Of a stretch of DNA of 64,000 bases, positions 6,401 through 60,329 are shown in pieces. How positions within the stretch are numbered: the stretch's first letter is position 1; the number at the start of each line of letters is the position of its first letter. Source of the DNA: Eledone cirrhosa (taxonomy: Eukaryota); assembly GCA_964016885.1 (NCBI GenBank), contig OZ024748.1:57970001-58034000 (forward strand), read 5' to 3'. The position numbers and the translations under genes are program-made. A model generated the notes under the pieces. It ran no database searches. It saw only the letters and a list, made by a program, of their open reading frames with translations, and had not been told where the DNA came from.

Positions 6401-6508
6401 ATGCTTTCATTGGTCCGATTAGACAAGTTCAACCCCTCTCGTTATGCGAAAGAAATGTAGGAACTTGCGATTGTTCTAAGATATATATATATATATATAT
6501 ATATATAT

Positions 6509-7457
6509 AAGAAATGAATACGAGGAACATAAACCATTAAAATATGTTTATATAACAATGCACCTACGAACGTTTCTTTTATCAAGAGCATGGAAAAAAA
6601 AATTATCAATACGCGACCCAGGATGGGTGCATGTGTTGTTATTCCATCAGAGCAGGGGGAGTAACTCTGGCCGGTGCTCGACCAATCATGTCCTACTTGG
6701 TTTTTTATCCATTTATATGGTGGCATTTGTGTTATATGGGTTATATTGGTGCTGTTTCACTAATGCAGGTTCGAGCCAAGTCTGGAATGCACATTTATTA
6801 TTTTGTGGGTGTTGTTTTACTCATGCCGGTTCGTGCAGTGTCTGGGATGTACATTTGGTGCACAGATGTTTGTTTACACCGCCTACCCACCGTAGTGTTA
6901 TGGTTTGGGCAGGTGGAACAGTTTATAGTGTTCATGCCACAGTCGCTTCCCAGGCGAATTCCGAGGCCTGTACTCGGTGCTTACAGTTTATGACTGATTC
7001 AGCCCTGCTGTTTATGTGCTCGTGGGGTGTTCTTATGATGTAGTAAAGCTCCATGCGGCAAAGCTGGCATTTCCTCTTGAAGTTGTAGGGTGCAGCCCTA
7101 CCGACAATATCCCAGTGTGTAGAGAAGCTGATGTTGGCGTCTTTTAATGTAGTGACGTAATTGGCAAGCGATGTGGAGTGCCTTATTTTTTTGTTCCTGA
7201 AAGAGTGGAGATAAGTCCACTCTGGGCGAAACGTACGTAGGTGCATTGTTATATAAACGTGTTTTAACGGTTTATACTCCTTGTATTCATTTCTTTTATA
7301 ATCGCTCTGCTTATTTTTTCTCGCCCACTAAATATTAACGCTTCTAATATTTAACCCTGTAGACACGAGTATTGAGCACATTTGCACAAACGGTTGGCAA
7401 CTAAATATATGTATCGTCCATCTTTCCTTTTTTCTCTCTCTCAATACTAAATCATTC
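6509..7457 (-). mobile_element. Truncated Penelope-like element with inverted pLTR end, inside (TA)n
   Basis: Minus ORF 6932-7246 reads HSFRNKK..HSTSLANYV..LKD.NI.F..HWDIV..AAPY..KRKCQLCRMELYYII...INSRAE...CKH, the PLE GIY-YIG C-terminus. Inverted arms of ~67 bp at 6509-6576 and 7228-7295; (TA)n on both sides. Confidence 0.85.
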
Positions 7458-7634
7458 TATATATATATATATATATATATATATATATATATATATATAT
7501 ATATATATATATATATACCAGCCATGTCTCTCCATGTGTGTTTATTTTCATAATTCCGCACAAGGTGAACTACCCTGCTTTTAAATTCCCTTTCTGGTAT
7601 ATTTTGGGAGCGGATTTTGGGTTATCGTGTAGAG

Positions 7635-7713
7635 CTCTACTGAGGAACGAATCCTACCGTGACTAATACCACTGGAAAGTTTCGTGAAATAGTATTTTTA
7701 AGATAAAATAGAG
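7635..7713 (+). ncRNA. Hammerhead-like motif with extended stem II
   Basis: CTCTA-CTGAGGA-ACGAA...TTCGT-GAAA...TAGAG. Core and stem II are intact; the cleavage triplet is unclear. Confidence 0.5.
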
Positions 7714-7966
7714 TATTTGTAGTTTTTTAAAATTGAAGGATGAGTATTTAAACTTTATTTTATTCTGAGTTAAGCCTCTATTGGTTTTTTCCCTGGATTT
7801 CACAAAATCTGTGGATAAAGTCTCTGTCTTGATTTTTTTGAATTGAGTTTGAATTATTTTCCCATATCGTACTTTAATTATTTTCCATTCTGACGTTATA
7901 GTCACTTATATATTAGGAAATACTGTTGGCTCCTTCTTACATTAATTTCTATATTTTCATTTTTAT

Positions 7967-8070
7967 TTCTCTCTCTCTCTCTCTCTCTCTCTCTCTCTCT
8001 CTCTCTCTCTCTCTCTCTATATATATATATATATATATATATATATATATATATATATATATATATATAT
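7967..8070. repeat. (TC)n(TA)n compound microsatellite
   Basis: Direct read. Confidence 0.95.
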
Positions 8071-55960: not shown

Positions 55961-56150
55961 TTAATTGTTTCTACGTTAGGCACAAGGCCAGCAATTACCC
56001 AGTGTATTACTGGTACTTTATTTTATCGACCCCCGTAAGGATGAAAGGCAAAGTTAACCTCGGCGGGATTTGAACTCAGAATGGCAAGGGCCGTAACTCT
56101 ATGCGTCAAAGCATGGCGTCCGACCGTCTACCAATACTGCCAATCCACCT
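55961..56150 (-). mobile_element. Full-length SINE with target-site duplication
   Basis: Flanked by ACTTTTGTAAATTAATT at about 55950 and 56153. Confidence 0.92.
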
Positions 56151-58902
56151 TTACTTTTGTAAATTAATTCTTTCTATAAGCTGAACAGTTGTCTCATATT
56201 AATAAAAAAAAACATACCACGAAATATTGCACATCGATATATTTTAAATGTGGTGAATACACTTCCCTTTGATCACAGCATCCCACATAACTTCTTCATT
56301 TGATTTGTTCCAGCAATGACGTTTCTAATATCAATACTACGTTTAATCCAACAAAACACTCTCAATATTGATTCAGATCTCATGCATATATTCATATAAA
56401 GTAAAATATGGATAATTTTATGCTAAGTATTATAAAGGATTGATAACGTTTATTACATGAACGCAAACATACTATACTCAGTAGTTATATCTATCTGTCC
56501 AGCTATAGACGCGCTGCGCGCGCGCACATATATATATATATATATATATATATATACATACTTGAAAATGTATATGATGTAATACATTTTTTAGCAATTA
56601 GTTCAGAACAAGCAAATACTTTTCAAGTTACATTTTCCGTTTATCAAATTCCATTACAAATTATCAGTCAAAGCTCAATTTGGAAAAAACCTTCTGAATG
56701 AACCACGTAGCATGACTGAACCCAGAATAACATGGATGCAAAGCAAATTCCTTAACTATATGGCCAACCCTGTGATTATTATCTGCAATATTTTGTTTTC
56801 TATTGATTTAAAAAATAAATAATTCTTTTATTAAAATATTGTACCTCAGTATCTAGCAACAACAATACTTAATGATCGAGTTAACAACTCGTACTGTAAG
56901 TTTATGTCACTCACTCTGATACCGGATGGTACAGTGTCTGCAGAGGCTGACATTTACTTTCCGGAATTAAATATAAGTAGTTCTATTCACATTTGTACTC
57001 TGTAATTCTCTGAAATATAACCTGCCCCTTTTAGATTTATAGAACTATTTTGGTACCGGTTATTTGTTTTTGGAAATCATTTGCATTTATCTTTGTAATA
57101 TATGCACCCGCTGTGCATATATTACATGTTGCTGACAGTTTTCTCTGTCATATGAGCAATTCAATTTAGGCTGACGCTAGAAATCAATGCATACAAATCT
57201 CCTGGGATATGTTTTCCTATTATATATAAGTGAGATAAAATCATCAAACGTATAAAGTATGGTGGCAGCCACGCCATACCATTAGATAGTGCTATATAGA
57301 GGAGTTCAATTTAATGGTTTATATTCCATATCAACTAAAATATTCTTAATGTTCATATATATCATTTACATTTCGAATCATCTGAAGTGGCATACGATAT
57401 CTTTTATTTCGATATAACTGCAAACACGTTTCTTCCTATTAAGAAATCATATAGTACAATCGAAGTTAGTGAATAGGCTATACACGGAAAGGTTGTTGGA
57501 AACCGAAACCGTTACAATTCAAATTAAATAATTTGATATATAATAACAATGAAATCACTGAATGTATTACATATAAATGATCGACATTATTGTCTTCTCG
57601 TTCATTATTGTTCAGAAGCAAAGCAAAATGGTTTAAAAATAAATGTGATTCATTTGGTTAATAACTATAACATAGCGTTTGTTTACAATGCAGATTCGTT
57701 GCTTATTTTGAAATATATCTCTGAAATACGCATTAACTAAATATTCAGAAATAATGTATTCGATTCAGCAGGAACAAAACATGTTCTGTTACTATGTGTT
57801 ATAATATGTATATATTGTAATATTGAATTATCTGTAAAGAATGGAACACATCTCAGAATAGTGTCTCTCTTTGGTAAAGTTATTTGCGCTGAATACATTT
57901 ATTGGGAACAAAGTAGATAATGGGCGTAATACATATAAAATATATACATGATTTAACATGTATTTAACTGATAGTCGTCAGCATATTCAATATTAGTTAA
58001 GCAACAGAATGAATTGCATTGAATTTCGTATATTACAATAATTGTAAATAATTGGTGACGAGTGTAATGTTTTGAATACAATTTTACATATCGGTATTTC
58101 CATCATTTTAGCGTACAGACTAGAAAACGTAACAACGAATAGAGCTTCTAAGTGGTGGTATGTCGTTCTATACTTCGTAGCCGATGTCTTTATTGATAAG
58201 GCAGTCAGGGGAAAACACTGTTCGCTTGATGTCTGCACCAAGCATTTGCAGCATGTAGACAGATCTGAAGGATTTTAATAACATATTACTATTGGGAATT
58301 TGTCTCCGCATTTGGTACACTGACAAGTATATATAGTTTAATAACACTACCGCAAAAAAATACAGAGTTGCAATTTATTGAATGTGTACATATATATTGT
58401 AATGGACTTGTTGAAGTTATGAATATCGATCGTATGGTCTATATGTATATGCGAATATGTAAATACATATATGAATATATGTATGTGTATGTATGTATGT
58501 ATGTACGTATGTATCAGGTTTTTACTAGTTTTAAGCTACTAAATCCATTATTCAACAGATAATTCGACACTTGAGATGGTTCAGTGTATATATATTAGGG
58601 AAACAGGCCCAGTCGACTCAGCTTTTGCCGTTTGGACAGCAAATTCCAGAATGGGAATCGAATTCCCTGCTCTGAATAAGCCAGTTCATCAGAGGTACGC
58701 CTAAGTGGATAAGCAAGCAGTCTATAAGTAGATAAGTGGACAAGAAAATGTTACTGGCTCTTTGAAGGCTATTAATGTTAAGTTCTATAATCAATATTAG
58801 TATATTTTCTATTTTCAGGAATTGGTTGTGAGTGTTTGTGTATGTTGGTTGTGTGAAAATAAAAACAAATGTGGCACCAACAGTCTCTAGATATTACATT
58901 AA

Positions 58903-59869
58903 TGTATATATATATATATATATATATATATATATATATATATATATATGTATGTGTATATATATATATATATATGTATGTGTATATATATATATATATA
59001 TGTATGTATGTGTATATATATATATATATGTATGTATGTGTATATATATATATATATATATATGTATGTATGTGTATATATATATATATATATATATATG
59101 TATGTATGTGTATATATATATATATATATATATGTATGTGTATATATATATATATATGTATGTATGTGTATATATATATATATGTATGTGTATATATATA
59201 TATATGTATGTATGTATATATATATATGTATGTATATATATATATATGTATGTATATATATATAAATATGTATGTATATATATAAATATGTATGTATATA
59301 TATATATGTATGTATATATATATATATGTATGTATATATATATATATATATGTATGTATATATATATATATATATATATATGTATGTATATATATATATA
59401 TGTATGTATATATATATATATGTATGTATATGTATGTATATATATATATATATATATGTATGTATATATATATATATGTATGTATATATATATATATGTA
59501 TGTATATGTATGTATATATATATATATATATATGTATGTATATATATATATATATGTATATATATATATATATATATGTATATATATATATATATATATG
59601 TATATATATATATATATGTATGTATATATATATATATATGTATGTATATATATATATATATGTATGTATATATATATATATATATATATGTATGTATATA
59701 TATATATATATGTATGTATATATATATATATATATATATGTATGTATATATATATATATGTATGTATATATATATATATATATGTATGTATATATATATA
59801 TATGTATGTATGTATGTATATATATATATATATATATGTATATATATATATATATATGTGTGTATGTGT
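58903..59869. repeat. Long (TA)n/TATG compound microsatellite
   Basis: Direct read. Confidence 0.95.
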
Positions 59870-60061
59870 AACGAAGGCGGTGTGGACCATAACGCACCAG
59901 AGTACTCAATACTTAGGGTAGTAGAGTGGGTAATAGGAAAATGTTTGACCCCGACGGCAGAGCTCAGGCCGTTTCGACGGCTATTTCTGAACTAAATTTA
60001 GTCCAGAAATAGATGTCGAAACGGCCTGAGCTCTCTGCCGTCGGGGTCAAACATTTTCCTA
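59870..60061. mobile_element. Fold-back insert: ~63-bp arms each with an HHR 3' half, plus tail
   Basis: Arms 59934-59996 and 59997-60061; GAAACGGC...GCCGTC-GGGGTC at 60018-60048; tail 59870-59933 shared with 24091 and 31192. Confidence 0.8.
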
Positions 60062-60329
60062 AATATATATATATATATATATATATATATATATATATAG
60101 GATAATTAAGAGGAAGCAGCATACGGTACATTAAAATCAAGATATAAATTAGTTAAACACGTGTCTTAGTAGAAATACTCCTCGACTTTTCGGACGTGAG
60201 TCCTTAATCGGAACAAAGAATTTTAAAAATTGTAAGTTTAAATTGAATGCTAGGGAAAATAGGAAAAAAGTATTATAACCATATATCGATACTTATTTTA
60301 TATGCATAGATTAAACATAATTATAGAGA

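Follow-up and report, generated by a model that had tools for sequence, protein, structure and literature searches.

A 64-kb stretch of AT-rich, microsatellite-dense DNA from the octopus Eledone cirrhosa (GenBank assembly GCA_964016885.1, contig OZ024748.1, positions 57,970,001 to 58,034,000; hereafter the window) contains eight inserts in which inverted arms lie next to (TA)n microsatellites: A (6510-7457), B (16248-17004), C (31141-31272), D (37559-38250), E (39558-40382), F (41324-41599), G (48971-49421) and H (59870-60061). They are probably the 3′ ends of Penelope-like elements (PLEs), truncated at the 5′ side, joined head to head, most likely of the (TA)n-targeting Hydra clade, and with fixed ends that fall just before twin hairpins putatively bound by the reverse transcriptase (RT). 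The general form of this fold-back pattern is already known; what is new is the twin hairpin at a fixed distance from the element ends. A conserved hairpin, absent from the original prediction made from this sequence, marks the fixed end points.

Inverted inserts at (TA)n tracts

The original prediction proposed a common layout of (TA)n, arm, spacer, inverted arm and (TA)n. Self-comparison of the window with microsatellites masked recovered real arms at all eight sites. Those of A (6504-6576 and 7228-7300) matched at 65/73 positions, those of D (37560-37592 and 38119-38151) were 91% identical, and those of E (39662-39876 and 40171-40386) matched at 213/215 positions with one gap; corresponding values were 111/116 with three gaps in F, 54/61 in G (49195-49255 and 49356-49416) and 59/62 with one gap in H, while the 19/19 identical arms of C flank a 25-nt inverted middle. 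The B arm, 16265-16327, matched both 16329-16390 (59/62) and 16854-16915 (60/62). Three inserts nevertheless depart from the simple layout. The inverted arm of B lies 18 nt away from its TA tract, and the insert, a partial tandem on the plus strand, holds a 156-nt direct repeat (16328-16483, again at 16853-17008; 149/156 identical). In D, a TA run and the ten bases TGTAAACCTT stand between arm and body and are present again at the far end. G is a composite that is TA-flanked only when extended to 48971. An inverted, 5′-truncated copy with a tail at one end only was thus seen in A, C, D, E, F and H, with B and G irregular. C and H belong to one family, together with 24092-24168. The repeated (TA)n-TGTAAACCTT unit of D (37593-37620 and 38251-38347) may reflect target duplication, a template jump or reiterative copying.

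The predicted enrichment of inverted repeats at TA was found within the window. From the masked self-comparison 15 local inverted repeats were picked by hand, leaving out pairs of short interspersed nuclear elements (SINEs) and one microsatellite pair, and 9/15 had an outer end ≤20 nt from a tract of (TA)6 or longer, whereas 2000 circular shifts of the tracts averaged 2.3 and never exceeded 7. Insertion into (TA)n is a trait of the Hydra clade, and these nine repeats display it here.

Sequencing reads from four runs, including restriction-site-associated DNA (RAD) runs and run X4, were compared over 39140-41780, the E/F region. Both families proved to be multi-copy. For F, a hairpin-type fold-back of a very abundant family, approximately 600 reads per RAD run extend beyond the fold point into a hammerhead 3′ half; because other copies continue past it, the fold-back is particular to this copy. 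One X4 contig connects the left arm of E with its spacer, so at least part of the spacer belongs to the tailed copy. A pile of read starts at 41490 sits on a GCATGC site and was taken as a RAD cut, and ‘opposite strand’ joints in F reads were taken as switching between the two arms; neither was used as evidence. A further X4 contig joins the E spacer to the middle of hammerhead stem II (40039 to 40309), and may represent an independent E-family fold-back or a deletion.

It is very improbable that the fold-backs are assembly or library artefacts arising at AT-rich tracts. No piece among those listed for the four runs spans the E or F junction together with its flanks, which fits an artefact and counts against our interpretation. 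Yet substitutions separate the arms in 7/8 inserts, the tail is present on one side only, and the ends share their offset from the hairpin with elements of unrelated organisms, as described below.

Coding remnants and hammerheads

Of three GIY-YIG endonuclease remnants claimed originally, two loci were detected. When 18 window segments were compared with a single, null-controlled profile of Hydra type (built on the best 150 homologues), A scored 49.6 bits and 14625-15816 scored 69, 45 and 31 bits (maximum 69.1), while the other 16/18 segments reached ≤3 bits and the null maximum was 9; by sequence, B to H contain no Hydra-type GIY-YIG detectable with this profile. A third coding remnant, considered for E or B, did not stand up to comparison with shuffles. 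In A, the remnant is C-terminal and, with a 3′ untranslated region (UTR), lies in the long, tail-less copy (6510-7227, minus strand). The locus at 14625-15816 (minus) is a TA-flanked, frameshifted PLE remnant of linker and GIY-YIG, having neither inverted copy nor tail, with a degenerate hammerhead 3′ half near 14691. Both translations show CxxC and CxH with a C-terminal GIY-YIG lacking CCHH, which are Hydra-clade traits.

With the remnant 15258-15770 as query, HMMER retrieved 155 proteins at E ≤0.001 (none at 1e-10), including full-length proteins with both RT and GIY-YIG that carry RWK, DKT, CxCX5C, CxxC and CxH, by which the Hydra clade is diagnosed (Craig et al. 2021, PMC8557442). The CxCX5C linker is invariant in the full-length homologues; the 14625 remnant lacks its first cysteine, and A begins below it. 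No RT is left in the window copies, although the RWK/DKT RT is present in the homologues used. A word-based protein search with the 14625 remnant gave 0 matches among 153 candidates. Pfam gave no GIY-YIG match for any insert, nor for four full-length homologues, and PHROGs gave none for three pieces. A broken frame in D (37681-38064, minus) resembles a CCHH-type GIY-YIG end by eye only, with no support from Pfam, PHROGs or the Hydra profile.

The type I hammerhead ribozymes claimed originally are mostly partial. A strict descriptor (CTGANGA) found 0 hammerheads in the window. A relaxed one, shaped on published Hydra motifs (PMC8557442, supplement table), found one complete hammerhead with a U3-A8 core in E (40293-40331, plus) and one with a single core mismatch in B (16763-16833), only the 3′ half in C and H, a degenerate motif in A (6585-6565) and no complete hammerhead in F or G. 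Two more, absent from the original prediction, lie in TA-flanked pieces: 8354-8411, with a perfect core and a 12-bp stem I, and 49528-49566 (plus), which has one core mismatch and sits in 49445-49605, a piece flanked by microsatellites; its folding was not above shuffles. With one mismatch allowed, the five window matches exceeded the null (mean 0.9, maximum 4, 60 nulls). Among the 150 matches listed, of 284, in an Rfam scan of the window, only microsatellite- and palindrome-driven ones occurred. A perfect 30-bp palindrome at 27266-27329, which is not TA-flanked, closely follows a hammerhead 3′ half (27354, minus) on the downstream side; in contrast to the other inserts, this arrangement is tail to tail.

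Much of this agrees with published systems. Nearly all Hydra families target (TA)n, including one from Octopus bimaculoides (Hydra-1_Obim), and the clade shares with the inserts absence of CCHH, presence of CxxC and CxH, and inverted 5′-truncated copies with a tail at one end only; the type I hammerhead that it carries near the 3′ end may be a further common trait, mostly partial in the window (PMC8557442). Minimal hammerheads of metazoan PLEs likewise occur as opposite-strand pairs 100-700 bp apart, with the U3-A8 core variant and a palindromic helix III (Cervera and De la Pena 2014, PMC4209133); the parts of that paper available to us describe no element downstream of the hammerhead. PLE origin, (TA)n targeting and priming on both strands at two fixed RNA positions are supported, but previously described (PMC8557442, PMC11167929, PMC4209133), and the layout itself is known: PLEs are already on record as leaving inverted 5′-truncated copies with one-sided tails, inserting into (TA)n and priming at two sites.

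A bulged hairpin downstream of the hammerhead

Comparison of tails revealed a short stem with a 2-nt bulge common to A, C, D, E and H. Its layout is GCTC-stem-loop-stem-UH-GAGC, in approximately 20 nt. The first descriptor was drawn from the window and is thus circular (seven window matches; null mean 1.1, maximum 4); as it gave one match in the first 22 metagenome loci it was relaxed, and hold-out loci were used for the test. The metagenome set comprised 78 loci with full-length Hydra-like elements (the best 78 of 399 confirmed stretches), assigned to this type by motifs only, of which 74 reach the protein end (60 families at 85% identity). A hammerhead followed the protein in 48/74 loci, 79-518 nt past the endonuclease match in full-length loci. 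Where at least 120 nt remained past the cut site, the hairpin followed the hammerhead in 25/34 loci, 30-60 nt downstream, and the figure for loci not used to adjust the pattern was 17/24. Controls on the reverse strand, in the open reading frame (ORF) and upstream gave 0/34 each.

Covariation points to a structure that acts single-stranded. In 26 families anchored on GCTC/GAGC only, the bulge was TT in 18, TC in six, and TA and CT in one each. The inner pairs next to the bulge form in 25/26, 20/25 and 18/19 cases, with two-sided changes, whereas assuming a bulge of 0, 1, 3 or 4 nt the first inner pair forms in 0, 0, 2 and 8 cases. Overall, 95.9% of cells were paired with 29 two-sided changes, a count equalled by 0/500 shuffles and lost on sliding the partners; the four outer pairs are set by the search anchors and carry no evidential weight, and kinship among families is only partly controlled.

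The hairpin also occurs ahead of the ORF. Of 49 loci with 170 nt available there, 43 had at least one and 29 had two, at about −40 and −105, and in 28/29 the twin hairpins were 54-83 nt apart. A covariance model trained only on non-window loci recovered the same upstream hairpin pairs in many loci. In eight loci (L017, L021, L027, L029, L031, L047, L053 and L078) the elements are arranged head to tail and continue through both hairpins as far as the next ORF; a TA run stands between the two hairpins of L021. Any inverted match was present in 9/78 metagenome loci, making inverted copies rare in this set.

We found no description of the hairpin in Rfam or the literature searched, though figures, subscription papers and bioRxiv supplements could hold one. 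Rfam gave 0 matches at gathering scores for 20 of the 78 loci and 0 up to E 5 for L047 2050-2350, with low sensitivity, the hammerheads being missed too. The words hairpin and stem-loop are absent from the main and supplementary text of PMC8557442, figures aside. By eye, sequences in its supplement show the bulged hairpin after the hammerhead in Hydra-2_Amil and Hydra-2_Ajap (the latter spotted after the pattern had been set) and a variant in Hydra-1_Crog, while Hydra-1_Amil, Hydra-1_Obim and Hydra-1_Ajap end before it. Tails in the Hydra clade are given as 30-40 bp (PMC8557442), compared with about 65-165 nt here.

Element ends lie just before the hairpins

In the metagenome, 3′ ends were mapped by alignment to the upstream copy of the same family, and 17 were neither contig ends nor run-throughs. 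Fourteen of these lie 0-6 nt before a hairpin start (12/13 families). In the window, copies end about 3-4 nt before the hairpin in A, 4 in B, 2-5 in C, 0 in D, 4 in E and 6 in H, that is, in 6/8 named inserts. The eight best window matches of the non-window model, in order H, C, 24130, E, 8467, D, G and 127, all fall in TA-flanked inserts, with rough E-values of 6e-5 to 0.09.

The individual inserts show how tails and hairpins are arranged. H is a palindrome with two hammerhead 3′ halves and its tailed copy on the minus strand (hairpin 59927-59904, E 6e-5). C, on the plus strand, consists of an inverted copy that holds a hammerhead 3′ half and ends at the internal site, joined to a tailed copy (hairpin 31200-31223, E 2e-4). 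Their relative 24092-24168 (minus), with TA on both sides, is exactly one tail, from internal site to tail end (hairpin approximately 24163-24140, E 5e-4). In E, the tailed copy is on the minus strand (hairpin 39657-39636, E 0.0024). D comprises a 33-nt inverted arm, the TA-containing insert, a spacer and a tailed copy from 38119 on the plus strand (hairpin 38173-38208, E 0.065). The distance from hairpin start to tail end is 57-99 nt in C, D, E, H and 24092, close to the 54-83 nt between twin hairpins. In A, the long copy ends in (TA)n at the internal site and the short tailed copy (7228-7457, plus) starts from the hammerhead GAAA, with a long-looped hairpin at 7304-7377. B has a weak hairpin at approximately 16488-16509 (plus), just beyond the end site of its second copy, and G a degenerate hairpin-like match at 49168-49125 (minus; E 0.079).

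Two tail-like units of 135 nt, at 61-195 (plus) and within 8320-8559 (minus), have equal starts and ends, and the inner stem of their hairpins is fully swapped. The former ends in (TA)n, has its hairpin at 127-148 (E 0.091) and is 88% like 8426-8558. The latter is part of a TA-flanked composite in which the tail unit, with hairpin 8495-8474 (E 0.0064), is joined to the complete type I hammerhead 8411-8354, with its perfect core and long stem I; folding for this composite gave z −2.99.

That ends and hairpins coincide would also be expected if the hairpins were RNA processing or termination signals, and ordinary target-primed copying then began from two RNA 3′ ends with no internal initiation. 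We regard this as unlikely. It accounts equally well for the 0-6 nt offset and the two fixed ends, and other retroelements, as is generally known, prime at RNA 3′ ends. The only PLE studied in vitro, however, the Poseidon element PAc of the green anole, initiated internally as a purified protein regardless of 3′ extensions (Frangieh et al. 2024, PMC11167929). RNA-seq read ends coincide with the PAc start sites (PMC11167929), which fits either internal initiation or processing.

The motif might instead act on DNA, as an endonuclease or promoter site or as a cDNA hairpin that resolves the intermediate, with cleavage beside it and fold-backs formed by snap-back of a single cDNA; this we consider rather improbable, less so than an artefact. 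The tail of Drosophila Penelope is needed for endonuclease recognition of plasmid DNA (as reported in PMC11167929), the tail is ascribed to endonuclease-mediated resolution in PMC8557442, and snap-back fits H, F and probably E, the centre of H resembling a pre-existing imperfect stem. The fixed 2-nt bulge with covarying pairs, on the other hand, is not what a duplex site would need. Furthermore, in A and C the tail-less copy extends further upstream than the tailed copy, so neither can derive from the other; two cDNAs are needed, and a single fold-back, or snap-back of one cDNA, cannot make these inserts.

Possible non-coding passengers

Some of the source RNAs may have been non-coding. Non-long-terminal-repeat retrozymes are units that carry a type I hammerhead but no coding sequence; they have been proposed as derivatives of PLEs that depend on PLEs to move (PMC7229834; bioRxiv 10.64898/2026.07.22.740005), and many inserts could be retrozyme-like passengers that use a Hydra protein by way of hammerhead and hairpins. 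This doubtful possibility is compatible with our explanation, as it concerns the source RNA only. In its favour, B holds a 527-nt unit with hammerhead and weak hairpin but no coding match, resembling a retrozyme insert of 1.3 units with one near-complete hammerhead, and in E the roughly 360-420 nt that precede the hammerhead gave no coding match either. Tandem units with at least two complete hammerheads, a retrozyme trait, were not found in the window, and given the 79-518 nt between endonuclease match and hammerhead, truncated autonomous copies would look alike. The protein-free passengers inferred originally are not demonstrated here: C, F and H do not extend far enough to include an ORF, leaving only B, the best candidate for a non-coding derivative, and perhaps E.

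A model for tails and inversions

The positions of the hairpins suggest that they likely set the two start sites of reverse transcription, and in this way account for tails and inversions. In a tandem transcript the order would be ORF, 3′ UTR, hammerhead, U/A-rich site 1, hairpin 1, site 2, hairpin 2 and the start of the next ORF. Nicks made by the endonuclease in both strands of a TA tract would provide the 3′ ends, each of which would anneal with U/A-rich bases just ahead of one hairpin. Each hairpin would be a protein-binding site, hairpins 1 and 2 serving the two target strands, with a protein dimer possibly holding both. The cDNA from site 2 would carry the tail, that is, the stretch between the sites including hairpin 1, and the cDNA from site 1 would not. 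Both would stop early, often near the hammerhead, before a head-to-head junction formed between them; if the upstream cDNA were lost, a tail alone would remain, of the kind found at 24092-24168. The specific proposal that a tandem hairpin pair is bound at once by a dimeric RT-endonuclease, with one cDNA started before each hairpin from two TA-tract nicks, is more tentative, and we put it at somewhat below even chances.

In LINE-1 twin priming, two primers from two target strands give rise to a 5′ inversion, as proposed here. To our knowledge no conserved RNA structure fixes its internal site, and overlap between the pieces is not usual, unlike in the inserts described here. The closest experimental parallel is PAc, whose protein is a predicted dimer: as in the arrangement proposed here, its target is AT-rich and is cut and extended on both strands, the tail is delimited by two internal start sites, and RNA lying 3′ of these sites is required (PMC11167929). 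Its stem loop is said to lack homology to the target, whereas the U/A-rich bases before the hairpin could here pair with TA, and no conserved twin hairpin is described in the available parts of that paper.

Several observations weigh against this interpretation. PAc belongs to another clade, and its start sites lie within the ORF, in a different, AC-rich stem loop (PMC11167929). Three of the 17 metagenome ends fall elsewhere (−12, −27 and +32), and the acceptance window of 0-9 nt was set after the data had been seen. The loose pattern behind the upstream hairpin counts also matched 6/49 ORF stretches and 17/49 reverse strands. Within the window, the model is weak on B (E 0.45) and A (E 1.4) and gives no match for a tail hairpin in F; the G hairpin is degenerate and about 20-40 nt from the end; and the inverted arm of B stops 90 nt short of the site. 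Hairpin 2 is not visible in the window’s own families, only A joins the hairpin to Hydra-type coding sequence, and the D spacer may belong to another clade. Counts of wobbles and mismatches do not separate RNA from cDNA. Folding of single hairpins did not surpass that of shuffled sequence (z −0.67 to +0.52), so the case for them rests on covariation and position.

Other repeats near the inserts

An inverted repeat of 155 nt and 94% identity (23724-23874 and 24309-24463) surrounds a TA tract and the tail-only copy at 24092, and is possibly a miniature inverted-repeat transposable element or an older fold-back. In G, 48971-49115 (plus) is of another family, probably a second element, with a hammerhead-like 5′ half at 49010; a short TA-flanked fragment 1.1 kb away, at 50188-50262 (minus), is related to it (83% over 53 nt). 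Beside E lies a TA-flanked, multi-copy piece (39139-39520), other copies of which show internal deletions in the reads. The very abundant repeat at 41615-41781 has other copies that run on into further sequence in the reads; this continuation looks tRNA-like, and we take the repeat to be, probably, a SINE end. Tandem arrays of an abundant SINE-like repeat occupy 4605-5372 and 61809-62741, with many dispersed copies on both strands. Finally, 38348-39088 (plus) is a TA-flanked, LINE-like reverse transcriptase remnant (Pfam RVT_1, E 0.007, under the curated cut-off).

Implications for Penelope-like elements

The origin of PLE tails and inverted copies is a named open question (PMC8557442), and the one in vitro study of a PLE, as far as its available text goes, identified two internal start sites but no conserved signal (PMC11167929). 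In many families, a covarying hairpin of approximately 20 nt indicates where an element ends, with a margin of about 6 nt, and so offers a direct test. It also marks the ends of Hydra-clade elements and of non-coding derivatives that protein searches overlook. Were twin hairpins held by a protein dimer, the tail on one side, the inverted copies and the preference of PLEs for microsatellites would all follow from a single arrangement; it would resemble the template-boundary principle of the sister enzyme telomerase, and non-coding RNAs that keep the hairpins could be mobilised.

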